From an uncultured Ectothiorhodospiraceae bacterium (GTDB lineage: Bacteria; Pseudomonadota; Gammaproteobacteria; UBA9214), in NCBI GenBank assembly GCA_947259415.1, contig CAMYMI010000007.1, forward strand, positions 35,565 to 99,564: DNA of 64,000 nucleotides, written 5' to 3'. Position 1 is the stretch's first letter. Each line of letters opens with the position of its first letter. Shown here in pieces: positions 36,225 through 49,813 of the stretch. The notes beneath the pieces are model-generated. The model was not told the DNA's origin. It saw only the letters and a program-made list of their open reading frames with translations, and did no database searches. A program made the translations under genes and the position numbers.

Positions 36225-36434
36225 GCCTGTAACTTACACCTCTTGCTGCCGTTATGCCCCTGGGCAAACCCGCAAGCGTCCACAACCACTGCTTGCACCT
36301 GACCGGTTATCACTGATAATTGACGCAAATCAGTCCGGCGACGGATTATGTGGTCCATAATTAATATATAAATCGTAAACCGGTAATTGTCATTAAACGG
36401 ACGTATCCCGGCCACCAGCAGACGAGGCAAACTC

Positions 36435-38870
36435 ATGGAACCAGGCAAGCCGCTGACCCCTGACATGCTCTACCAGGAATGTGACCCGGAACTGTTTGAC
36501 TTTAAAACCACTGACGAACTTGAGGACCTGGTCGATATCCCGGGCCAGGACCGTGCCGTCGAGGCCATCCATTTCGGCACCGAGATGGCGCCCGACGGCT
36601 ATAACCTGTACGTGCTCGGCACCCCGGGCAGCGGCCGGCACAGTCTCGTCAGACACATCCTCGAGCAAAAGAGCGCACAAATACCGGCCGCCGATGACTG
36701 GTGTTACGTGAACAATTTTTCCGACCCGACGAAGCCTTGCGCGCTGCATATGCCTGCAGGCCAGGGTACCGAGCTGCGCAGTGACGTCGCACAGCTGATC
36801 GGCGAGGCCTACACGGGCATACCCGCAGCCTTTGAAAGCGAGGATTACCAGACCCGCCAGCAGGCCATCGAGGAGGAATTCAAGGAATCCCAGGAAAAGA
36901 CCTTCGAGGATGTACAACAGTTCGCCAGGAAACGCGGCATCAAGATCATCCAGACCGCGACCGGCTTCGTATTCGCACCACTGCACAAGGACAAGGCCAT
37001 CAGCCCGCAGGAATACGAAAAGCTGCCACAGACGGAAAAGGAGCACCTGGAACAGGTCACCGAGGAAGTCGGCAAGGAACTACAGCGCGCCATGCAGGCA
37101 ATACCACAGGAGGCGCGCAAGGTGCGCGCCAAGATGCGGGAACTTGACCGCGAGGTCTCGATGTATGCCGTCGGCGGGCTGTTTGACCAGTTGCTGGACA
37201 AGTACCGCACTCAGGAGCAGGTCGTCACCTATCTCAGGGAGATGCAATCCGATATCGTCGACAACGTCGATGTCTTTTTAAAGGCTCCGGAACATGACAG
37301 GCTCCCGGCCAAGGTTCTGCTCGGCGGTCGTGCCCAGGGACTGGAGTCCACTGAATCACCGGCCATGCGCCGCTATGCCGTCAACGTCATAATCGACCAT
37401 GGCGGTGACGAGGGTGCCCCGCTTGTCTTCGAGGATTACCCGACCTTTCCCAACCTGGTCGGCAAGATCGAGCACGTTTCCGAAATGGGCACCCTGATCA
37501 CCAACTTCACCCTGATCAGGGCCGGAGCCCTGCACAGCGCCAATGGCGGATACCTGGTGCTGGATGCCGCAAAGCTGCTGGTACAGCCGTTCGCCTGGGA
37601 GGGCCTGAAGCGCGCCCTGAAATCGTCCCGGATCCGCATCCGTTCGCTCGGCGAGGTTCTCAGCCTGATCAGCACGGTGTCGCTCGAACCGGAACCGATA
37701 CCGCTCAACCTCAAGGTCATTCTGCTGGGCGACCGCCTGATTTACTACCTGCTGCAGGCCTATGACCCCGAGTTCATGGATCTTTTCAAGGTGGCGGCGG
37801 ACTTTGATGACGCAATTGACCGTACCGCGGAGAACAGCCGACAGTTCGCCCGGCTGCTGGCCACCCATATCAAGCGCGAGCAACTCAGGCCACTGGATTG
37901 CTCCGGCACCGCCCGGGTGCTGGAGGAATGCGCACGCCATGCCGGTGATGCGGAAAAGATCTCCGCACAGATCCGCCACGCGGCCGACATCGTTCGCGAG
38001 GCGGATTTCCATGCCCGTAACAACGACAGCAAGATTATCGGCAGCGAAGAGGTCCAGCGTGCGATTGATGCCCGTATCCGCCGCGACAGCCGTATTCGCG
38101 ACCGCCTGCAGGAGGAGATTCTGCGCGGCACCATCCTGATCGACACCGACGGCGAACGCGTAGGCCAGGTCAACGGTCTGGCTGTGGCCCAGCTCGGCGA
38201 GTCCTCCTTTGCCCATCCCTGCCGTATCACCGCGCGCGTCGCCCTGGGATCGGGCGAAGTCGTGGATATCGAACGCGAGGTGGAACTCGGCGGGCCAATC
38301 CATTCCAAGGGCGTATTGATTTTATCGGGGTTCCTGGCATCCCGCTATGTGATAGATCAACCCCTGTCACTGTTCGCGAGCCTGGTGTTCGAGCAAACCT
38401 ACGGCGGGATCGAGGGTGACAGTGCCTCTGCGGCCGAACTCTGTGCCCTGCTCTCGGCACTCGCGCAGATTCCGGTACGGCAGGGCCTGGCGATTACCGG
38501 CTCGGTCAACCAGCATGGCCAGGTCCAGGCCATCGGCGGTGTCAACGAGAAAATCGAGGGGTTCTTCGACATCTGCTCAAGACGCGAGCTGACAGGAACG
38601 CAGGGTGTGCTGATCCCGTCTTCCAACGTCAAGCACCTGATGTTACGCAGGGACGTGATCGAGGCGGTTGCGGCCAAGCATTTCCAGATCTACCCGGTTG
38701 AGACCATCGACCAGTGCATGGAACTCCTGACCGGGATTGAAGCGGGCGAGTGCAATGCCCGGGGTGATTTTCCCACTGATTCGGCCAACCAGCGGATACG
38801 CACCCGGCTGATCGAATTTGCCGAAAAGCGGCATGCCTTCGGCGCGACCGGTTCCAAATCAGAGACCTAG
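36435..38870 (+). CDS. LonC-like Lon-related protease with degenerate AAA+ module
   Basis: Walker A reads GTPGSGRHS (no Lys); C-terminal Lon S16 protease domain with Ser (GDSAS) and Lys (NEKIEGF) dyad; start at MEPGKPLTPD. Confidence 0.8.
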   Translation: MEPGKPLTPDMLYQECDPELFDFKTTDELEDLVDIPGQDRAVEAIHFGTEMAPDGYNLYVLGTPGSGRHSLVRHILEQKSAQIPAADDWCYVNNFSDPTKPCALHMPAGQGTELRSDVAQLIGEAYTGIPAAFESEDYQTRQQAIEEEFKESQEKTFEDVQQFARKRGIKIIQTATGFVFAPLHKDKAISPQEYEKLPQTEKEHLEQVTEEVGKELQRAMQAIPQEARKVRAKMRELDREVSMYAVGGLFDQLLDKYRTQEQVVTYLREMQSDIVDNVDVFLKAPEHDRLPAKVLLGGRAQGLESTESPAMRRYAVNVIIDHGGDEGAPLVFEDYPTFPNLVGKIEHVSEMGTLITNFTLIRAGALHSANGGYLVLDAAKLLVQPFAWEGLKRALKSSRIRIRSLGEVLSLISTVSLEPEPIPLNLKVILLGDRLIYYLLQAYDPEFMDLFKVAADFDDAIDRTAENSRQFARLLATHIKREQLRPLDCSGTARVLEECARHAGDAEKISAQIRHAADIVREADFHARNNDSKIIGSEEVQRAIDARIRRDSRIRDRLQEEILRGTILIDTDGERVGQVNGLAVAQLGESSFAHPCRITARVALGSGEVVDIEREVELGGPIHSKGVLILSGFLASRYVIDQPLSLFASLVFEQTYGGIEGDSASAAELCALLSALAQIPVRQGLAITGSVNQHGQVQAIGGVNEKIEGFFDICSRRELTGTQGVLIPSSNVKHLMLRRDVIEAVAAKHFQIYPVETIDQCMELLTGIEAGECNARGDFPTDSANQRIRTRLIEFAEKRHAFGATGSKSET

Positions 38871-39667
38871 TGATGACGCAGCGCGCCAAACACCCACCTG
38901 CACGGATTGCGGTCATGCTGGTCAACCTCGAGTCTGATCACGCCACCCTGGAAATGCTGAACCTGCTCGCCGGTGAATCACCGGCCGAGATCCACGGCCT
39001 GTTCGTGGAGGATATCGAACTGCTGTCACTGGCTGACCTGCCGCTGGCACGTGAATATTGTCGCCTGACTCATGTGGAACGCGTTGTGCAGGTCCCGGAA
39101 CTCGAACGCCAGTTCAGAATCCAGGCCCGTGCCGCTGAACAGGCACTGACCGCACTCGCCAGCCGTCGCGGCATGCAGTGTTCTTTCAGGACAGTACGCG
39201 GCGAGCCTGCCACCCTGCTGCGGGAAACGCTGGAGGCAATGGATTTGATGTTACTCAGCGCCACTCGCCATACCCTGTCGACAGCCGACTATCGTGCATT
39301 TGCGACCCGTGGCCGTCCCGTCAAAAGGCCGGTGACCGTGGTGTTCGATGGCTCTGAAGTCGCCCAACGCGCCCTCGGGGTTGCCACGCAACTGGCCCGT
39401 GCCGGAGCGGCTGCCTTGACGGTATTGCTGGTGGACGATACATCGGCTGCATTTGATGCACTGCGTTCACAGGCGACTGAACAAATCGGCACACAGCCGG
39501 CCGAGTTCAGGGAAGTCGTAAAACCGGAGATGAGCGAACTCATCAGGCAGGTGCAATCAAGCCGTGCCGGCTGCCTGGTAATCGGGCGGAACGAGGACCT
39601 GCTCACACCGAACAATATCGAACGCCTGCGCCACCAGCCCGGCTGCCCGGTCGTGCTGGTCAGCTAG
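38870..39667 (+). CDS. tandem universal stress protein (UspA) domain protein
   Basis: Two Usp-like alpha/beta modules; ATGA overlap with the lonC-like stop. Confidence 0.65.
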   Translation: MMTQRAKHPPARIAVMLVNLESDHATLEMLNLLAGESPAEIHGLFVEDIELLSLADLPLAREYCRLTHVERVVQVPELERQFRIQARAAEQALTALASRRGMQCSFRTVRGEPATLLRETLEAMDLMLLSATRHTLSTADYRAFATRGRPVKRPVTVVFDGSEVAQRALGVATQLARAGAAALTVLLVDDTSAAFDALRSQATEQIGTQPAEFREVVKPEMSELIRQVQSSRAGCLVIGRNEDLLTPNNIERLRHQPGCPVVLVS

Positions 39668-40359: not shown

Positions 40360-41379
40360 ATGAACGGCTATCTTGAAAACGGTCTTTCCAGGATACGCAA
40401 GATGTTGCGCCGATACCGGCCCCGTAGTCGGGTCGCTGGTCAACCAACGGCCGCTGCCCTGGATACCATCGAGCATGTTATTCAGAGTACCGATGAACGC
40501 ATACGCCTGGTCAATGGCTACAAGCACAGGCTGTTGGACGCCGTAACCACCACACTAGAGTACACCGGCTCAATCATCGACCAGTTCCCCACGGCCATCG
40601 AGGTCAGCAGCAATACCTTTGTTTCCAACCCCTATGTCAATGCCTTCTTCGCCAATATCGAGGAGCTGCAGTCGGTCTTCAGCCGCAGTCCCGAATTGAG
40701 GGATTTTATCGACGATTACCGGCATCACGACGTCAAGGATATCTGCGCGCTGTTGTGCATGCGTAAGGCCGAAAAGACAGCACTGGGGATGGAGTATGCC
40801 GGCAATACCATGAAAAGGGATGTGCGCCAGGTTGCCATCAATTTCTACGACCATCATGTCTATTCACCCGCGCCGACGGAGGCCGAAACACGCCAGGGAC
40901 TGAAAGACTGTCTGCTTGAAGGGTTAACCACGATGGCCCTCGAGCGTGTGGTGCAATTGCGCCTGTCACGACAAACGCTGGAAGACGAGCAACGCATCCT
41001 GCAGGCGAGATTGAGGTCCCAGCAGGCAGACAGCTGGGACAATCTTGACATGGAGAAGTCCCGGGAGAAACTCGGCCAGATTGAGGAGGCCATGAAGGAC
41101 ACACCACCCGCCTCCCCCATGGAAACCCTGAACGTGGTGGAAGAGGTCCTCAGTCACCCGGAGGAATTCGTCAGGCTGGAGATGATGTCACTGCGGGTTG
41201 ACAGGATGGGGATCAAGCGCAGCGAGGACTCCCCCGGGTCAAGCAACAAGCTGGATCTTATCGAGGTGACCATCGGCAAGGATGATCCCAGGGTTATTAC
41301 GCTGGCCAGGTTTCCCAGGAACGAGGTCCTGCCCCGTATCGATATCCATGAATGGACCCGCCAGCGCATGCGGGTCTAG
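40360..41379 (+). CDS. hypothetical protein (339 aa), charged with coiled-coil region, no recognisable domain
   Basis: ORF with AT-rich divergent promoter region shared with the ybaK-like gene. Confidence 0.5.
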   Translation: MNGYLENGLSRIRKMLRRYRPRSRVAGQPTAAALDTIEHVIQSTDERIRLVNGYKHRLLDAVTTTLEYTGSIIDQFPTAIEVSSNTFVSNPYVNAFFANIEELQSVFSRSPELRDFIDDYRHHDVKDICALLCMRKAEKTALGMEYAGNTMKRDVRQVAINFYDHHVYSPAPTEAETRQGLKDCLLEGLTTMALERVVQLRLSRQTLEDEQRILQARLRSQQADSWDNLDMEKSREKLGQIEEAMKDTPPASPMETLNVVEEVLSHPEEFVRLEMMSLRVDRMGIKRSEDSPGSSNKLDLIEVTIGKDDPRVITLARFPRNEVLPRIDIHEWTRQRMRV

Positions 41380-41449: not shown

Positions 41450-42337
41450 TCAGTCCTCCGGATATGCGACGGCATCCTGAAAGAACGGCAGGTACTCGGT
41501 CCAGTCGTTGACCGGACCGGCATGGAAAAACAGCACAATGCCGTTACGGTCGAGCACGTAGCTTGACGGGAAAATCCTGGCCAGCTCCCGGTCCGGCATC
41601 TTTTCGCCGGCAGCGGTCACCAGGAAGGCATCATCCTCCCCGCTGGCGCCGGAATCTGCCAGGGGCAACCCGGCGAATCCCTGTCGCTGCGCCCACTCAC
41701 GTGCATTGCTGATCGGTTCGCGCAGCTGCAACAGGACCAGGGCGACATCATCACCGGTCTTGTCCAGCAGGATACGGTGCAGGGTGTCCAGGGTGGGCAA
41801 TTCTCGCAGGCATGGTGGGCACCAGCTGCCCCAGAAATGCACCATCACGACCTTGCCGCGCAGGTCGGCAATTGACCGGGACCGTCCGTCCGCACTGGTG
41901 AAGGCGATGTTCGGGAATCGATCACCGACTTGCGTGCCCGTCGCGGCTGTCGCGGCCTGTTCAGCTGTCTTATAGGGCCCCCAGAGCTTGCCCCATGCCT
42001 CGCGCGCGAACTCCAGCGTGTCATCCACGGCATAAGGAATACAGCGCAGGGCCGTGTGCTTCTGGCATTCCTCCACAGCGACCTGGCGGGCCTCCTCGGC
42101 AGTGGCCCTCCCGGATGACCAGGCCCAGGCCCCGCCCGGTGCGATCGCGAATGCGCGGTGCCTGTCGGCCGACAGAAAGACCTGCTGATAGGTCGCACGC
42201 GCGCGTTCACCGACATGCGGGATGGCGTCCGCGTCATCAATTCCGGCAGCGCTGACGGTGTTACCCGGAATGAAAAACAGGCACGGCAGCAGGATAAAAA
42301 AGAGAGCCCGGATTAACGGACTCTCAGGTTTCGCCAT
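41450..42337 (-). CDS. TlpA/ResA-family thiol:disulfide oxidoreductase
   Basis: Thioredoxin-fold WCPPC motif, N-terminal signal/anchor; start at MAKPESP. Confidence 0.8.
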   Translation of the reverse strand: MAKPESPLIRALFFILLPCLFFIPGNTVSAAGIDDADAIPHVGERARATYQQVFLSADRHRAFAIAPGGAWAWSSGRATAEEARQVAVEECQKHTALRCIPYAVDDTLEFAREAWGKLWGPYKTAEQAATAATGTQVGDRFPNIAFTSADGRSRSIADLRGKVVMVHFWGSWCPPCLRELPTLDTLHRILLDKTGDDVALVLLQLREPISNAREWAQRQGFAGLPLADSGASGEDDAFLVTAAGEKMPDRELARIFPSSYVLDRNGIVLFFHAGPVNDWTEYLPFFQDAVAYPED

Positions 42338-42388
42338 GATTGCTTGCCTTGTACCAGGCATTGCTGTTGTTATTCGGTTTATCCCGTG

Positions 42389-42982
42389 CTAATCGATCTC
42401 TTCCCAGCCGGTGATCATCGCCTTGATGTGCGACATCGGCTTGTGGCCGGTAGTGGCAAGATAGATGTGCGCAATGAAGAAGATCAGCATCATGAAGGCG
42501 CCGATGACGTGCGCGGTGGCCACCCACTCCAGGTTCAACCAGCCCAGGCCCCAGCTTTCCCATGACGTATAGAACAGGTACAGCAGCCCGGTGGCCCAGA
42601 TCAACGGGTTGATCATCAGTTTTACAAACAGGTAGGCCAGGCGCTGCAGAGGATTATGCTTGTGCAGCGTGGTCTGACGAAACGGATGCGGCGCATGGCT
42701 GAAGATACCCGTGAGGTAGTAACGCATCATCGCCTCCACCTTGTCCATGGTGGGCACGTACTGCTTCCATTCACCGGTGGTGAAATGCCAGAAGATGGCG
42801 AACACCCACAGGGTGATCAGCGCCCAGGCGGACAGGGTATGCAATTCCACGGCGCGTTCAAAACCCAGGTTGCTGTAGGTACCGTGGATTTCAAAACCCG
42901 TGATCATCATCACGATGATCAGCAGGGCCTGGGTCCAGTGCCAAAAGCGTTCGAAGCGTTTAAAGATGTATATTTTCTCCAT
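42389..42982 (-). CDS. membrane di-haem cytochrome b (FdnI/HyaC-like b-type subunit)
   Basis: 4 TM helices with conserved His pairs (WHWTQ, HTLSAW, HVIGAF, AHIYL); 4 nt downstream of the octaheme gene stop. Confidence 0.75.
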   Translation of the reverse strand: MEKIYIFKRFERFWHWTQALLIIVMMITGFEIHGTYSNLGFERAVELHTLSAWALITLWVFAIFWHFTTGEWKQYVPTMDKVEAMMRYYLTGIFSHAPHPFRQTTLHKHNPLQRLAYLFVKLMINPLIWATGLLYLFYTSWESWGLGWLNLEWVATAHVIGAFMMLIFFIAHIYLATTGHKPMSHIKAMITGWEEID

Positions 42983-42986
42983 TGTC

Positions 42987-44747
42987 TTAATCCTCTCTCT
43001 TGGCAAGGATGACACGGATACCACCGTGGATCAGGACACCAATCAGTGCCAGCAAGGCCACTCCAAAGCCAATCATGTCGAGGAGCGGCATCCTGTCACG
43101 CGCCGGCAGGTAGATGCCATCAATACCGGCCAGGCGGCCACCATCGGTATGACAGCTTTCACACGCCAGTGCATCCTCCTTCGGTGACACCATGTGGGTA
43201 ATCGGCCAGCTCATCTCGGTGGACACGAAGCCGAGCTCCCCGCTGTATTCGGAACCGGCGGTCCGCATACCCACTTCCATGGCCTTGTCCCAGTCGTAGT
43301 TACCCCAGAAGGCGGCATCATCTTTACCTGCGGTGTGCAGGACGGCCAGGGTCTGCAGGCCCTTGTCGTACATCTGTTTGCCACGGAACACGCGCACCGG
43401 CCAGATGCGGGCCTCCGGATCATCCGCGTCACCCTGGAACTCGTTGATCTTGACAACGCTGTCTTCACTGACCTTGTCACCGAACAGGGTGTAATTCACC
43501 TTGCCGTTGAACCACTGGTACTCGGGTACCACGTAACGGTCATAGGTGAAGTTGCCCTTCTTGCTGTCGTAGACGACCTTGCCCGCGCTGTTCTTGAGCT
43601 GGATACGGTGACCCTGCTCATCGAGCTTGCCGGCCGTGGACCAGTCCCAGCTCATCTTGGTCTGCAGCGTGCTGCGTGCATACGCCGGGATGTGGCAGGT
43701 CTGGCAGGCCAGCTTGCGGGTGTGGTCATTGAGCTTTGCCGCCTTGTCGGGATGCGGCGTATTGCCGTGACAGGCCACGCAGGTGGTGGGATTGCGCGGG
43801 TCCTGGCTGCCGGGTACCAGCACGCCCTTTTCGTCCGCCGCGGTCGGACCGTAGCGGCTGCCCGACACCTCGTGTTCATCGGTCACATGACATGTCGAGC
43901 AGGTGAAGTTCAGCCCCTTGCTGTCCATGTGCACATCAAGATAGCGCCCCGGATTCGTCAGCGAGCTGTCGAGGTCGCCGTGCTTGACGGCATCACCGCC
44001 ACCGCCATAGAAATGACAGGTACCGCAGGTCTTGCGGCTGGTCGGTCCGACATTCTGGGCGACCTGCTTCAGGTCGGTGGGCGGCCGGAACTTGCCTGAA
44101 TGCGGCGGCCACTCGATGGTTTCATAGTTGGGATGACCCGACAGCCCCGGAAGCTTCTTGTAGGTCCCGGTGGTGTCGTGGCAGACCAGACAGTCGACAT
44201 TGGCCTCGGCAGTGAAATCGAAGCTGTCATCTGCCCACCCGTAACCGATATGACAGGCCGAACAGAAGGTGTTATTTGACTTGACCGAGGTACAGAAGTT
44301 GTTGATGACGTGCTTCTTGCCCAGTTTCTGACCGGTATCCGGATTGATGTATTCCCAGCTCCAGTGCTTGGTCTTGTGGATCTGCTTGGCGGCTTCGGTG
44401 TGACATTTAAGACAGGCCTTGGTCACTTGCGGTCCTGACTTGAAGTCGATATCGAGTTCCTCGAACTTGGAGTGATCCGCGGTGGACTTGCTTTTCTCTT
44501 CCACCGGTTCCTCGACCGCGACCTGCTTCGGTGCCGGGACACTCTGTATACTTTCGGCTGCGGCCTTTTCGTCCTCACCGGCGACCTTGACCACAGCGCC
44601 TTCAATGGCCTGTTCTATTTCTGCAACCGCACCCTTCTCTGCTTCGGCCAGGGGTGTCGCCGTAGCAATGACCGGACTGGATACTGCCAGGGCCAGTGCG
44701 AATGCAATTCCCAGCACCGGAGCAATCACTCGATCTATGGTAAACAT
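42987..44747 (-). CDS. octaheme c-type cytochrome (OTR/HAO-superfamily-like) with C-terminal TM anchor
   Basis: Eight CxxCH motifs (CLKCH, CSACH, CLVCH, CGTCH, CSTCH, CVACH, CQTCH, CESCH), signal peptide from MFTIDRV, C-terminal hydrophobic helix. Confidence 0.85.
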   Translation of the reverse strand: MFTIDRVIAPVLGIAFALALAVSSPVIATATPLAEAEKGAVAEIEQAIEGAVVKVAGEDEKAAAESIQSVPAPKQVAVEEPVEEKSKSTADHSKFEELDIDFKSGPQVTKACLKCHTEAAKQIHKTKHWSWEYINPDTGQKLGKKHVINNFCTSVKSNNTFCSACHIGYGWADDSFDFTAEANVDCLVCHDTTGTYKKLPGLSGHPNYETIEWPPHSGKFRPPTDLKQVAQNVGPTSRKTCGTCHFYGGGGDAVKHGDLDSSLTNPGRYLDVHMDSKGLNFTCSTCHVTDEHEVSGSRYGPTAADEKGVLVPGSQDPRNPTTCVACHGNTPHPDKAAKLNDHTRKLACQTCHIPAYARSTLQTKMSWDWSTAGKLDEQGHRIQLKNSAGKVVYDSKKGNFTYDRYVVPEYQWFNGKVNYTLFGDKVSEDSVVKINEFQGDADDPEARIWPVRVFRGKQMYDKGLQTLAVLHTAGKDDAAFWGNYDWDKAMEVGMRTAGSEYSGELGFVSTEMSWPITHMVSPKEDALACESCHTDGGRLAGIDGIYLPARDRMPLLDMIGFGVALLALIGVLIHGGIRVILAKRED

Positions 44748-44871
44748 GGCCTCTCTCCGCTGGAATGGATGAGCTAATGCTAAAAAATCGTTTACTACTA
44801 TACAAACAACCGACCGCTGGGCAGCGGCCACTAACGGCCGCTGCATCAGCAGGGTCAGATAAGCAGACCCC

Positions 44872-45417
44872 TCAGCATCCGCTGACTTCCGGTCCACCGG
44901 CGCCACCACCGCCCGGTTTCACCTTGATCAACGGCGGCGCCGGCTGGTTCGGATCGAACTTCAGGAACTCGGCCTGATCCTTGGCGACCTCGTTCATGAC
45001 AGCGGCCACCTTCTTGCCAAACAGCCTGCCCATCAGAGCGGAGTTCATGGTACCGATATAGGTCTTGCCATCATCCTTCTTGTAGACGGTAATGGTGCAC
45101 GGCATCATGATGGACAGGATGCGCGCCTGGTCATCAGCAAGCAGCACTCCCGAGTAGTCGGTACTGCAGGCCTCCACCAGCAGCACGGGCGGTACGTTCC
45201 TGCCCGAATTGGCAACGGCCTTGGACGGATCCCGCAACCCGGAAAGTGTCCATCCGCGGTGGCCCATCCTCTGGATATTGGCCTGAATCCGGGCGGCCGT
45301 CTCCTCGATACCGAACGGGCTCTCATGCTCGACCATCATGAAACTGCCAGCTGTGTTAAACCCGACGATTCCCAGCAGGGCGATGCCTGCGATAAATCCC
45401 ATAACTGCTTTCCACAT
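44872..45417 (-). CDS. DUF302 domain protein with N-terminal TM segment
   Basis: Length and conserved core consistent with DUF302; Gly-rich C-terminal tail. Confidence 0.65.
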   Translation of the reverse strand: MWKAVMGFIAGIALLGIVGFNTAGSFMMVEHESPFGIEETAARIQANIQRMGHRGWTLSGLRDPSKAVANSGRNVPPVLLVEACSTDYSGVLLADDQARILSIMMPCTITVYKKDDGKTYIGTMNSALMGRLFGKKVAAVMNEVAKDQAEFLKFDPNQPAPPLIKVKPGGGGAGGPEVSGC

Positions 45418-45872
45418 GGCGAATCCTCCTGAAAATATCCATCTTAATCCGGGCCACTATGGCCATAACAAGATGTTAGCATATTTTTACATTATTATTT
45501 ACTTATTTTCTTTGATCCAGGACAAGAAAATTGCCATATCCTGGGCTTCTTGCGGGCTCAATGACGATTCCCGATGGCAAGCAGCAGCGTTCACTAACAT
45601 CCCGGGGGGGTGGGTACAGGCCTGCTTCCGGTACCGAGTGACCGGCATAATGACTCCTTACATCCCGGTGGCAGGATTATACCCCGACAGGACGCGACCG
45701 GACTGCCTGGACTGACTAAAAGTACCAATGTTCTCTCATTCATTGGTAAGCTTGCCGCTTGTTCTCATAGCTGTTCTGACGCCCGCACTGAATTCAGGCT
45801 GAACGTGATTACCGTGATTTTCCTCGCGCCCGGTTTTCCACAAACCCGGCTTTTTTTGGGAGGCCATAACTG

Positions 45873-46430
45873 ATGCTTGATGATCTGCATGTCCGGGATT
45901 TCTATATTCCCATCACCGACTATCCCCACGTTTCCGTTTCGGCCTCCATCTGCGACGCCATCCAAATGATGCACAACAGCCTGATCGAGGGCCACAAGTA
46001 CCGCACCATCCTGGTAACCGACGATGACCAGCACCTGCAGGGTTATCTCTCACTGCGTGACCTGACTCGGGCTATCGGACCGAAGTATCTCAGTAAAAAA
46101 GCACCCGATTACAAGGGACACCAGCCCTTCATGGGGATCAGCGAAGATTTCACCGCGTTGTCACTGATCTGGCAGGAAGGCTTCACCCTGAAGATCATGG
46201 AGGAGGCCAGGAAACCCGTATCCGATGTCCTGACGCTGATCAAGAACACGGTCAGCCTCAACGATCCCTTTGCCAAGTGCGCCTACCTGCTTCTGGTTGA
46301 GGACGTCCTGATTCTCCCGGTGGTGGATGATGACAAGGTCATCGGTGTGGTGCGACTGGTCGACATCTTCGAGCGTATCGCCGACACGATTTGCACCCAG
46401 AAAAAATTGCATGAGGCCTCCGGGGACTGA
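45873..46430 (+). CDS. CBS-pair domain protein
   Basis: Two CBS motifs (ILVTDDDQHLQGYLSLRDL and ILPVVDDDKVIGVVRLVDI). Confidence 0.7.
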   Translation: MLDDLHVRDFYIPITDYPHVSVSASICDAIQMMHNSLIEGHKYRTILVTDDDQHLQGYLSLRDLTRAIGPKYLSKKAPDYKGHQPFMGISEDFTALSLIWQEGFTLKIMEEARKPVSDVLTLIKNTVSLNDPFAKCAYLLLVEDVLILPVVDDDKVIGVVRLVDIFERIADTICTQKKLHEASGD

Positions 46431-46449
46431 TGTTCACAGGCAGATTCAG

Positions 46450-47925
46450 ATGAAAACGCCCCTACATTTTCGCAAGCCCGCACTGGAGCTTGATTTAAAG
46501 CGGATCTCCTTCATTGTGTTCGGTTTGGGCGCATTTATGGTCGTTTACCTGATAGACCCGCTGCCCGATGCCATCGACCCCGCAGGCGAGCACTTCCAGC
46601 TCACGCGTGAAGGCAAGGCCGCGATTGCCCTGTTTCTGCTGGCCGGGATCTGGTGGGTCTTCGAGGTGATCCCGATCGGGGTCACCAGCCTGGTCATCGG
46701 CGTGGTACAGGCCTTGTTCTTTATCCGCCCAGCCGAAGTGGCCTTCAAGGATTTCATGGACCCCTCGGTGATGTTCATCTTCGGCTCGCTGGTCATCGGC
46801 ATGGTGTTCACCAAGGTGGGACTGACCAAGCGCCTGGCTTACAAGATGCTGACGGTGGTCGGCGATCGCACCAGTATGATCTACCTGGGCTGCTTCGTCG
46901 TCACCGCCGCGCTGACCCACATCATGGCGCACACGGCGGTTGCCGCCACCATGTTCCCGATCCTGATGGCCATTTATTCCCTCTATGGAGAGGACGATGT
47001 GCCCTCGCGTTTCGGCAAGGGACTGTTCATCGGCATGGCCTTCGTGGCCGGGGCCGGCAGCATGATCACCCTGCTGGGTGCTGCGCGTGGTGCCGTGGCC
47101 ATCGGTTTCTACAATGATATCGTTGGTCAGCAGGTAACGTTTTTCGAATTGACCTATTTCATGTTCCCGATCGGCTGGTTGCTGGTGTTTCTGGTCTGGG
47201 GCCTGATCATGTTGTTGTTCAGGCCGGAAAAGGCGACCATACCGGGACTGAAGGAAAAGGCCAAGCGCCTCTACGAGGAAACCGGGTCCCTCTCCGGCCA
47301 GGAAATCTTCGTGGCAGTTGTCGTCCTCGGGGTGATCATCACCCTGTCACTCAAGTCGTTCATCCCGGCCATGTCCGAGGTCGACAAGACCTCCGTGGTG
47401 CTGGTCTCGACGGTCCTGTTTTTCATGTTCCGCATCCTCTCGCTGCAGGATCTCGAGCAGATCCCGTGGAATATTATCCTGCTGTTCGCCGGCGCCATGA
47501 GCATCGGCTTTTGTCTGTGGGAAACCGGCGCGGCAAAATGGATGGCGGTCAACTGGCTAGTCATGTTCCAGAATTCCAGCTGGTTCGTTTTCGTGATGGG
47601 CATCGCCTTTTTCATCATGCTGATGACCAACTTCATCATGAACGTGGCCGCAATCGCGATCTCCCTGCCGGTGGCACTGGTGATCGCACCCTACCTGGGT
47701 GTGGCGGAGGAAGTCGTACTGTTCGCTGCCCTCGCGGTGGCGGCCTGCCCCTACCTGCTGCTGGTCGGGGCCGCCCCCAACGCCATTGCCTACGACTCGA
47801 AACAGTTCACCGCGGCCCAGTTTTTCAAGGCGGGCATACCGGGTAGCTTGCTGCTGATGGCCGTTGTGGCCTTCGCTGTCGGCATCGTCTGGCCGCTGAT
47901 GGGGATGCCGGTCACTACGCTGTAG
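46450..47925 (+). CDS. DASS/SLC13-family anion:sodium symporter (ArsB/NhaD superfamily)
   Basis: About 490 aa polytopic permease with the internally duplicated architecture of divalent anion:Na+ symporters; start at MKTPLHF. Confidence 0.75.
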   Translation: MKTPLHFRKPALELDLKRISFIVFGLGAFMVVYLIDPLPDAIDPAGEHFQLTREGKAAIALFLLAGIWWVFEVIPIGVTSLVIGVVQALFFIRPAEVAFKDFMDPSVMFIFGSLVIGMVFTKVGLTKRLAYKMLTVVGDRTSMIYLGCFVVTAALTHIMAHTAVAATMFPILMAIYSLYGEDDVPSRFGKGLFIGMAFVAGAGSMITLLGAARGAVAIGFYNDIVGQQVTFFELTYFMFPIGWLLVFLVWGLIMLLFRPEKATIPGLKEKAKRLYEETGSLSGQEIFVAVVVLGVIITLSLKSFIPAMSEVDKTSVVLVSTVLFFMFRILSLQDLEQIPWNIILLFAGAMSIGFCLWETGAAKWMAVNWLVMFQNSSWFVFVMGIAFFIMLMTNFIMNVAAIAISLPVALVIAPYLGVAEEVVLFAALAVAACPYLLLVGAAPNAIAYDSKQFTAAQFFKAGIPGSLLLMAVVAFAVGIVWPLMGMPVTTL

Positions 47926-48378: not shown

Positions 48379-48526
48379 AAAAGCGCTCCTTATTGCAGGT
48401 CCCGCAAGCTGACAGCCGCCGCCCGCGGGCACCTCACCGCTGCGTCCACTAGCTCCTGCAGGTCTGAGACTAATGGCAGCAACATTCTGTTATTATAGCG
48501 GTGAAAACAAGAGGGAGGGGAGATTC

Positions 48527-49294
48527 ATGAAAACAACAAGTTTCGACCACTTCCAGCAGCAGCCAATCGGCTGTCGGGCACTCTACACCATGACCCTCCT
48601 GGTCCTGGGAACAGGCTACCTGTTCGCCATGATCCAGACCTTTCATGTCCACTCTGGCCGTGACGGAAAACCGGGCTTGTCACACACCGACATTCAGATT
48701 GCCTACAGCGGCTCCCAGTCGGATACCCGTCTGGAGGCCGCTCTCAAAGGCTCGATGTCGGGGATGATCAGATCGGAGGATGCCGCGGTGATCAGTGGTT
48801 GGGTCCGCGGTGGTGCCAAGATGGAAAAGTTCCAGCAGCAGGTGGAACCATTGCTACAGGCCCACTGTTCCAGCTGCCATGGCACGGACTCGCAAATGCG
48901 CCTGGCCAACCCGCACATACCGAACCTGGGCACCTATGCTGATGTCATGAAGATGGTCCAGCTCGATACGGGAGCGGACGTCTTCACCATGGTCCGCGTC
49001 TCCCATATCCACCTGTTCGGGATGACCTTCATCTTCTTCATCATGGGCACGATCTTCCTCCATGTACAGATGAAAGCTATCTGGTTGAAGTGCCTCATCC
49101 TCATTACACCGTTTGTTGCCATCATCGTTGACATCATGTCCTGGTATTTGACCAAGTTGTACCAGCCGTTCGCCTGGGTGGTCTATTTCAGCGGAGTCTT
49201 GATGGCGATGGCATTCACCGTCCAGTGGTTTATGTCGATGTACCAGCTGTGGTTTTTCAAGTTGCCCCCGGAGCAAGCGGAAACCGGGGATTAG
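48527..49294 (+). CDS. membrane-anchored monoheme c-type cytochrome (N-terminal TM, haem domain, 3 C-terminal TM)
   Basis: Single CSSCH motif in the context LLQAHCSSCHG; hydrophobic helices before and after. Confidence 0.55.
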   Translation: MKTTSFDHFQQQPIGCRALYTMTLLVLGTGYLFAMIQTFHVHSGRDGKPGLSHTDIQIAYSGSQSDTRLEAALKGSMSGMIRSEDAAVISGWVRGGAKMEKFQQQVEPLLQAHCSSCHGTDSQMRLANPHIPNLGTYADVMKMVQLDTGADVFTMVRVSHIHLFGMTFIFFIMGTIFLHVQMKAIWLKCLILITPFVAIIVDIMSWYLTKLYQPFAWVVYFSGVLMAMAFTVQWFMSMYQLWFFKLPPEQAETGD

Positions 49295-49414: not shown

Positions 49415-49813
49415 ATGCGTTCCAGTGTAGTGATCATCGGACTTGCCATCGCCGCACCATTTCTTGGTACGGGCTGCAGCAAACAGGTCAGTTATGCAGC
49501 CGATATACAACCGTTGCTGAATCAGTACTGTGTACAGTGCCATGACGGCACAGGCGAGGGTTCCCAGAAGAGCGGCTTCATCATGACGAATTATGACAGT
49601 GTAATGAAAGGCACCAAGTTCGGTCCAGTCGTTGTCGCCGGGGACAGCGAATCCAGCACCCTGTACCGGATCATCAGCGGCAAGGTCAGTCCCAAGATCG
49701 ACATGCCGCCGACCGGACCGGAGTCCGTGGCCATCGGACGCGGACATAAAATGACCCCGGATGCCATCACCGCCTTCCAGCAGTGGATCGATCAGGGCGC
49801 ACTCAATAACTAG
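49415..49813 (+). CDS. monoheme cytochrome c lipoprotein
   Basis: Lipobox LGTGC; haem motif LLNQYCVQCHDG paralogous to that of the upstream membrane cytochrome. Confidence 0.7.
   Translation: MRSSVVIIGLAIAAPFLGTGCSKQVSYAADIQPLLNQYCVQCHDGTGEGSQKSGFIMTNYDSVMKGTKFGPVVVAGDSESSTLYRIISGKVSPKIDMPPTGPESVAIGRGHKMTPDAITAFQQWIDQGALNN

Follow-up and report, generated by a model that had tools for sequence, protein, structure and literature searches.

A probable membrane-anchored, quinone-linked oxidoreductase of the OTR family in an uncultured Ectothiorhodospiraceae bacterium

Introduction

On what does an octahaem c-type cytochrome act, and with what does it exchange electrons, when the protein ends in a hydrophobic helix and its gene is followed four nucleotides later by that of a cytochrome b? 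The question is raised by a 64,000-nucleotide stretch of DNA from an uncultured Ectothiorhodospiraceae bacterium (assembly GCA_947259415.1, contig CAMYMI010000007.1, positions 35,565 to 99,564), the whole of which is called the window here. Between positions 41450 and 44747 it carries genes for an octahaem cytochrome (otr), a cytochrome b and a TlpA-like redoxin, which an earlier note on the sequence had taken for a three-gene operon encoding an enzyme that resembles the OTR, HAO and MccA classes. Here the locus is interpreted, with a probability of roughly 0.6, as encoding a membrane-anchored, quinone-pool-linked oxidoreductase of the OTR family, most likely for sulfur oxyanions. Metagenomic surveys of the sulfur cycle routinely annotate OTR enzymes as tetrathionate reductases, despite their unconfirmed physiological function (PMC12949373).

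Family identity of the octahaem cytochrome

The otr gene (42987-44747, minus strand), whose ATG is preceded by the Shine-Dalgarno sequence GGAGAGAGG, encodes a protein of 586 residues (Otr) composed, in order, of a signal peptide, an Ala/Glu/Lys-rich linker of ~55 residues, a catalytic domain and a C-terminal anchor. Its reading frame and those of the cytochrome b and the TlpA-like protein lie at the coordinates of the earlier note, all on the minus strand. A signal-like segment covers residues 1-34 by hydropathy, and eight CxxCH haem c motifs, starting at residues 112, 162, 186, 241, 283, 323, 348 and 529, together span residues 112-533 (43149-44414, minus strand); 20,000 shuffled versions of the protein averaged 0.02 such motifs, with two at most. 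Of the 17 cysteines, 16 belong to these motifs and the remaining one is Cys152. Both the eight motifs and the C-terminal transmembrane helix reported in the earlier note were confirmed, by a motif regular expression with shuffles and by hydropathy, respectively. By sequence, Otr is exported through its N-terminal signal peptide and binds eight c haems.

A search with hidden Markov models (HMMs) for the OTR family, suggested in the earlier note, gave a full-length match above the cut-off: TIGR04315, the NCBIfam model for "tetrathionate reductase family octaheme c-type cytochrome", scored 633.3 bits (curated cut-off 375), with model positions 1-440 of 440 falling on residues 90-546. The OTR of Shewanella (1sp3) was the sole PDB relative of Otr by sequence (E=8e-119, 51% identity), and all eight haem motifs align with those of 1sp3 in the order kept by the family. 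The proposed resemblance to OTR therefore stands (TIGR04315, 633 bits), whereas those to HAO and MccA failed on motifs and HMMs. For HAO, no family of that type appeared among the Pfam and NCBIfam matches at E<=0.01. A motif scan of the 586-residue protein found no CxxCK and no CX15CH; the absence of CX15CH, together with a single free cysteine where copper needs a pair, led to rejection of MccA/SirA, and the absence of CxxCK to that of NrfA/ONR, for which only an NrfH fragment matched (30 bits against a cut-off of 134). Since the motifs and family-level HMMs of HAO, MccA and NrfA/ONR all fail, Otr can be assigned unambiguously to the OTR family (TIGR04315) and is not an unplaced look-alike. 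The soluble, Shewanella-type class within that family was likewise rejected, given the C-terminal helix at residues 551-584 and the cytochrome b gene 4 nt downstream.

Two residues of the catalytic domain deserve mention. Lys144 (44316-44318, minus strand) stands 18 residues ahead of the haem-2 CxxCH, a spacing identical to that in 1SP3 by alignment, where its counterpart is presumably Lys56 (a number obtained by counting along the alignment). Cys152 (44292-44294, minus strand), the sole cysteine outside the haem motifs, aligns with what we take, again from an alignment count, to be Cys64 of 1SP3. Among 282 aligned family members with eight haems, the lysine is kept in 280 and the cysteine in 273. 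The CxxCH of the catalytic haem of OTR is ordinary, but the haem is ligated by a lysine that a neighbouring helix provides (PMC13562315). The signature of such a lysine-ligated haem, which the earlier note had advised looking for, appears to be in place in Otr, with K144 as the putative proximal ligand of catalytic haem 2.

The N-terminal part of Otr is comparatively long, with 111 residues before the first haem motif against ~75-80 in most relatives. Residues ~34-90 (44480-44650, minus strand) make up the low-complexity linker of ~55 residues, which is rich in Ala, Glu, Lys and Val.

The C-terminal anchor and the cytochrome b partner

Homologue searches returned more than 6,000 Otr homologues, and when a single genome was scanned for each species, at least 558 genomes proved to contain relatives; the best 80 loci and one close metagenomic relative made up the 81 loci examined below. 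About one third of the full-length representatives of 50%-identity clusters are anchored. Shewanella-type proteins form a separate class of ~460 residues, soluble and encoded in loci without a cytochrome b, as in Shewanella algae, where otr is accompanied by genes for a monohaem cytochrome c and DUF3373, and in Malonomonas, where otr stands alone.

The hydrophobic C-terminal helix of Otr (~551-584, Kyte-Doolittle maximum 2.54) begins ~20 residues past the haem-8 motif and is followed by K/R, which puts positive charge at its cytoplasmic end; its transmembrane part was placed at residues ~552-581 (43005-43094, minus strand), with His574 (43026-43028) and Arg578 inside it. The helix is found in 119 of the 120 nearest homologues, which are ~550 residues long, and in every one of the 80 best-matching loci. 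Conservation across the 81 loci reaches 98% for H574, 95% for R578 and 93% for G570, and H574 recurs in 133 of the 136 anchored members of the family alignment. Two insertions are common to the anchored group and missing from the soluble proteins (22 vs 8 residues at 203-224, 17 vs 5 at 306-322). In three natural single-chain fusions (P0245, P0277 and P0282) Otr, the transmembrane helix and cytochrome b follow one another in that order, and the His-x-x-x-Arg motif of the helix is retained. This order fits the expected topology, because a periplasmic domain and one helix would be followed by the cytoplasmic N-terminus of a PF01292 protein. P0277 and P0282 also carry an additional multihaem domain before the helix, with 12-15 CxxCH; P0284, a candidate fourth fusion, was set aside as its sequence looks frameshifted.

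The cytochrome b gene (42389-42982, minus strand) has its ATG at 42982, exactly 4 nt (GACA) past the TAA of otr (42989-42987), as the earlier note had stated. Its product is a 197-residue membrane subunit of the four-helix, dihaem HyaC/FdnI type, matching PF01292 at 86.7 bits (gathering cut-off 30.1). Searched against the PDB as a single sequence it found nothing; a profile of 13 orthologues reached E. coli HyaC (4gd3) over the full length at E=2.6e-4, the only PDB match. Hydrophobic segments are consistent with four helices. Four histidines, H15, H48, H158 and H172, the last two 14 residues apart in the fourth helix, are 99-100% conserved among 72 orthologues and align with the haem-ligating histidines of HyaC, a pattern expected for two bis-His b haems. 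The top NCBIfam match was PhsC (NF011582; E=2e-33), but identity with PhsC was rejected: the score of 116 bits is below the equivalog cut-off of 204, and the match covers only profile positions 54-245 of 248, leaving out the first PhsC helix. The Otr helix may take the position of that missing helix in trans.

Downstream DNA was sufficient in 73 of the 81 loci, and in 71 of these a cytochrome b homologue lies 6-136 nt downstream of otr on the same strand. Loci of this kind occur in Gamma-, Beta- and Alphaproteobacteria, Chloroflexota, Actinomycetota and Marinimicrobia. The quinone-reactive partner of Otr is probably this cytochrome b. An octahaem cytochrome of OTR class with an anchor and a dihaem-type cytochrome b, as the earlier note had described it, is thus what the locus encodes. 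Its further statement that the arrangement is not classical holds for the crystallised Shewanella OTR, which has neither cytochrome b nor anchor, but not for the nearest relatives of Otr, where both are the rule. Moreover, the pair has been published for TDIS_1882/1883 and BOGUAY_2386, so that the protein essentially falls, through TIGR04315, into a characterised family with a known cytochrome b partner, an outcome that the earlier note had named as contrary to its own reading.

The DUF302-otr-cytochrome b-TlpA-like cassette

The actual unit is a cassette of four genes, transcribed from the minus strand in the order DUF302, otr, cytochrome b and TlpA-like redoxin. The DUF302 gene (44872-45417, minus strand) comes first, 124 nt upstream of otr, and was missed in the earlier three-gene description, just beyond whose edge it lies. 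It encodes 181 residues with a hydrophobic N-terminal segment (residues 1-30) and a match to PF03625 (E=1.7e-9); a search of the protein against the PDB found nothing. The TlpA-like gene (41450-42361, minus strand), placed upstream by the earlier note, has the lower coordinates yet is transcribed last, and so lies downstream. Translation probably begins not with the ATG at 42361 but with the second one, at 42337. The product is a periplasmic thiol:disulfide oxidoreductase (Pfam Redoxin, E=5e-15) made up of a signal or anchor segment, an N-terminal domain of ~100 residues and a redoxin domain with a WCPPC motif (PF08534, 55.9 bits against a cut-off of 26.6). In some homologues the extra N-terminal domain is DUF4189-like (PF13827).

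DUF302 genes are found immediately upstream of otr in 18 of the 81 loci, and full-length TlpA-like orthologues follow cytochrome b in 10, mostly loci that also have DUF302. Five contexts of TlpA-like homologues (46-51% identity) were chosen through a protein search, independently of the otr loci; four are DUF302-otr-cytochrome b-TlpA cassettes whose flanks are unrelated between genomes, and in two of these the stop of cytochrome b and the start of the TlpA-like gene overlap. A metagenome scan with the TlpA-like protein found one close relative only. In sulfur oxidisers with the tetrathionate-intermediate pathway, DUF302 genes have been described within sox clusters (PMC5037610).

Gene neighbourhoods of anchored otr

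Neighbour clustering across the 81 loci brought out a periplasmic triple-rhodanese protein (22 loci), a monohaem cytochrome c (16), DUF302 (16-18), a YeeE-type Sulf_transp protein (at least 14), SoxY and SoxZ (6 and 5), DUF3373 (6) and, in one sub-clade, a NapC-type protein with two multihaem cytochromes (6-7). Of 79 loci, 41 have one or more sulfur-type neighbours (rhodanese, YeeE-type protein, SoxY/SoxZ or DUF302). Nitrogen-cycle genes (nap, nar, nir, nrf and transporters) were not recurrent among the neighbours of the 81 loci.

Individual loci show how these genes combine. SoxY and SoxZ paralogues directly follow anchored otr, with an overlap or a 3-nt gap and no cytochrome b, in two loci (L036:5752-7937 and L067:2148-4539). 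In four others (L035, L055, L066 and L042) SoxYZ stands behind cytochrome b and is joined by rhodanese, monohaem cytochrome c and the YeeE-type protein. The large secreted protein DUF3373 occurs with otr both in anchored loci (L024, L040, L041, L046, L059 and L064) and in the soluble-type locus of Shewanella algae (L082), which makes it an accessory common to the two types, often together with a monohaem cytochrome c. One metagenome-assembled genome of Sedimenticola (JBEVVY010000001.1) has two anchored otr-cytochrome b loci (L004 and L047), one with DUF302 and the TlpA-like cassette and the other beside NapC-type and two multihaem cytochrome genes; such different neighbours in one genome suggest paralogues with different roles.

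Electron transfer, substrate and alternative readings

In the mechanism proposed for the anchored complex, the Otr helix would pack on the four-helix dihaem cytochrome b to form a five-helix membrane module, as in FdnH/FdnI and HyaA/HyaC, and the cytochrome b would replace the CymA-to-STC relay of the soluble Shewanella enzyme. Electrons would move from quinol to the cytoplasmic-side haem b, then to the periplasmic-side haem b, haem 8 and the haem chain, and finally to haem 2, where a small inorganic anion would be turned over on the periplasmic side. In Shewanella OTR, which receives electrons from CymA through STC, positive patches for docking lie close to haems II and VIII (PMC4484225); because STC is the donor and one patch lies near haem VIII, electron entry near haem 8 appears plausible. 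More speculatively, the TlpA-like reductase could keep Cys152, or a sulfur adduct on Cys152, reduced.

The substrate was left open in the earlier note, and we concur, as it is open even for the archetype OTR (PMC12949373). The class is most likely that of inorganic sulfur compounds of intermediate oxidation state, since gene neighbourhoods and in vitro work on a relative both point to it: for BOGUAY_2386, an expressed enzyme of Beggiatoaceae, tetrathionate reduction reached 93 umol/min/mg and was faster than that of nitrite (PMC6449678). The tetrathionate/thiosulfate couple is the first choice, and sulfite or carrier-bound sulfur species are possible.

Several points weigh against a quinone-linked enzyme for sulfur oxyanions. 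The quinone link of the anchored complex is itself a prediction. A role of H574 in quinone reactivity would rest on analogy with Wolinella HydA, in which a histidine of the C-terminal helix is required for that reactivity, and an AlphaFold2 model of a chimera of Otr 500-586 and cytochrome b, run without an alignment, was unusable for placing H574 (mean pLDDT 51, pTM 0.33). The direction of electron flow is unreadable from homology, because HyaC reduces quinone and PhsC oxidises quinol. About half of the loci have no sulfur-type neighbour, and one sub-clade stands beside NapC-type and multihaem cytochromes. The window itself holds mostly housekeeping genes and no sox, dsr, rhodanese or nitrogen-cycle genes, so that the sulfur context derives from other genomes. 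Deletion of otr in Shewanella ANA-3 left tetrathionate respiration unaffected and pointed tentatively to sulfite instead; in vitro the Shewanella enzyme prefers nitrite and hydroxylamine; and a 2026 study states that the physiological function of OTR has never been confirmed (PMC12949373).

Preference for nitrite and hydroxylamine leads to the possibility, unlikely but not far-fetched, that anchored Otr and its cytochrome b act as a quinol:nitrite oxidoreductase that converts these substrates to ammonium, as a stand-in for NrfAH in respiration or detoxification. A lysine ligates the catalytic haem, as it does in NrfA (PMC13562315), the conservation of K144 agrees with this, and BOGUAY_2386 also reduces nitrite, homologues from vent tubeworm symbionts having been linked to ammonium production (PMC6449678). 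Nitrite was nevertheless the slower substrate of BOGUAY_2386, the recurrent neighbours in the 81 loci are of sulfur type with none from the nitrogen cycle, and NrfA chemistry has no counterpart to a conserved free Cys152 with a dedicated thiol reductase. It is doubtful, too, that the enzyme runs in the oxidative direction, in which thiosulfate would yield tetrathionate at haem 2, or a species bound to SoxY would be oxidised there, and quinone would be reduced on the cytoplasmic side. The same doubt attaches to what would follow from it, namely a proton-motive redox loop of the FdnGHI and HyaABC kind and, in bacteria, a counterpart to the archaeal thiosulfate:quinone oxidoreductase. Most carriers of the cassette are lithotrophs that oxidise sulfur (Sedimenticola, Thiogranum, Gallionellaceae, Sulfuricellaceae and Sideroxydans), HyaC, the sole solved relative of the cytochrome b, reduces quinone, DUF302 is associated with bacteria of the tetrathionate-intermediate pathway, and SoxYZ, rhodanese and YeeE-type genes are among the neighbours, all of which would suit oxidation. 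Lysine-ligated haems, on the other hand, are known from reductive catalysis. The potential of ubiquinone is about +100 mV. That of the thiosulfate/tetrathionate couple is higher, at +198 mV (cited in PMC8528874), so that quinone reduction in the oxidative mode would be uphill at standard conditions; thiosulfate oxidation by OTR enzymes is also reported to be very low (PMC12949373).

It is a tentative and rather improbable extension that the whole cassette serves lithotrophic sulfur oxidisers as a dedicated sulfur-compound:quinone oxidoreductase, in which a covalent sulfur adduct on Cys152 is resolved by the DUF4189-redoxin protein and DUF302 binds the substrate or its carrier; a candidate form would be a bacterial thiosulfate:quinone, tetrathionate-forming enzyme with a proton-motive redox loop. 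For the TlpA-like protein the earlier note had instead proposed support of haem c maturation, that is, a helper reducing the CxxCH cysteines of apo-Otr, which we regard as decidedly improbable. Its redoxin domain does resemble those of TlpA, ResA, CcmG and DsbE, of which ResA and CcmG serve maturation, and the 16 haem-binding cysteines of Otr must stay reduced. However, every NCBIfam match lies far under its curated cut-off, and assignment to TlpA (NF047696, 56 vs 230 bits), ResA (NF002854, 51 vs 170) or DsbE/CcmG (TIGR00385, 37 vs 123) was rejected; the protein bears an additional N-terminal domain; and the gene tracks DUF302, not otr itself. A generic role in haem attachment is unlikely because most anchored Otr loci are without the gene, present in so few of the otr-cytochrome b loci that most anchored Otr must mature without it. 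The top PDB match is Bradyrhizobium TlpA (1jfu), which is known to reduce two copper proteins, ScoI and CoxB, and not apocytochromes.

Other genes and regulatory signals in the window

Scans of the window for promoters and terminators gave counts near shuffle expectation; by the consensus scan, terminator-like sites numbered 6 against 3.1 +/- 1.8 expected. One of the hairpins found, GC-rich and followed by a T-rich tail, lies within the 124 nt that separate DUF302 from otr (44811-44830, minus strand) and is a possible, weak candidate for an attenuator or terminator; because the count of terminator-like sites is near expectation, it may be due to chance. A second terminator-like hairpin with a T-run (GAGAGTCCGTTAATCCGGGCTCTC TTTTTTATCC) is found at 42302-42325 (minus strand), in the signal-peptide-coding 5' end of the TlpA-like gene, and could attenuate read-through from cytochrome b or likewise be fortuitous. 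An FNR-box search was uninformative: the sole site near the cassette (45512-45525) has two mismatches and is one of 36 such sites in the window.

For the context of Otr, the window was compared with an 84%-identical syntenic contig (L001). On the far side of the cassette, and divergent from the DUF302 gene, are genes for a CBS-domain protein (45873-46430, plus strand) and an anion transporter of the DASS family (Na_sulph_symp/CitMHS; 46327-47925, plus strand), a pair also present in L001. Further along come a polytopic membrane protein with a single CSSCH and no confident Pfam assignment (48473-49294, plus strand) and, after it, a small lipoprotein-like monohaem cytochrome c (49415-49813, plus strand) whose L001 counterpart is PSCyt1. 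Convergent with the TlpA-like gene is one for a 339-residue protein without a Pfam match (40360-41379, plus strand), found in the closest relatives only (3 loci). Beyond it, the stop of a gene for a LonC/LonB-like AAA protease (36387-38870, plus strand) overlaps the start of a Usp-like gene (38870-39667, plus strand), and this pair is again present in L001.

Significance

Nothing is unusual about this particular window: its locus is an ordinary copy, set among housekeeping genes, of a large anchored OTR subfamily that is already annotated, and the gene pair is widespread and already named. OTR proteins of the anchored form, with a cytochrome b of their own, are very common and would represent a self-contained, quinone-coupled system that is directly testable, and the recurring sulfur-gene neighbourhoods and the four-gene cassette supply concrete hypotheses on OTR function. 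If the sulfur-compound:quinone reading is true, OTR enzymes, and with them the DUF302 genes of sox clusters, would gain a physiological function.

Comparison with known systems

MccA/SirA and NrfA/ONR are, like Otr, multihaem c enzymes acting on small anions in the periplasm, and the haems of OTR and MccA have been reported to be superimposable (PMC12949373), but the CX15CH motif and the cysteine pair for copper of MccA/SirA and the CxxCK of NrfA/ONR are absent from the window protein. The PhsABC system offers a parallel on the membrane side, as PhsC is the quinol-oxidising anchor of a periplasmic sulfur-oxyanion reductase, although the catalytic partner there is a molybdoenzyme and not a cytochrome. 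In FdnGHI and HyaABC, four helices of cytochrome b are joined by one from the periplasmic partner. The window proteins would share this design, a PF01292 four-helix dihaem cytochrome b with one C-terminal transmembrane helix from a periplasmic electron-transfer subunit, but that subunit is an iron-sulfur protein in FdnGHI and HyaABC and a multihaem c cytochrome here, and the similarity to HyaC is remote.

The nearest published parallels are two loci in which an OTR-family gene is followed by a PF01292-type cytochrome b. In Thermosulfurimonas dismutans, the cytochrome b encoded next to it, TDIS_1883, was proposed to tether Otr (TDIS_1882) to the membrane (PMC4911364), and downstream of BOGUAY_2386 is a cytochrome b subunit labelled as that of a thiosulfate reductase, which resembles its Sedimenticola counterpart (PMC6449678). 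Judging by their descriptions, both probably belong to the anchored subfamily; their other neighbours differ (psr/phs-type in BOGUAY). The helix, its conserved histidine, the fusions and the cassette with DUF302 and the TlpA-like gene are not treated in those studies (PMC4911364; PMC6449678).

The OTR of Shewanella oneidensis (SO_4144, 1SP3), lastly, has in common with the window protein its membership of TIGR04315, 51% identity in the catalytic domain, the order of the eight CxxCH motifs, and the haem-2 lysine and free cysteine at identical spacing. The Shewanella enzyme is of ~460 residues, soluble, fed by CymA and STC, and encoded near a monohaem cytochrome c and DUF3373 with no cytochrome b; to the shared catalytic core the window protein adds two insertions (~14 and ~12 residues), an anchor in which a histidine is conserved, a long linker at the N-terminus and a cytochrome b dedicated to it.

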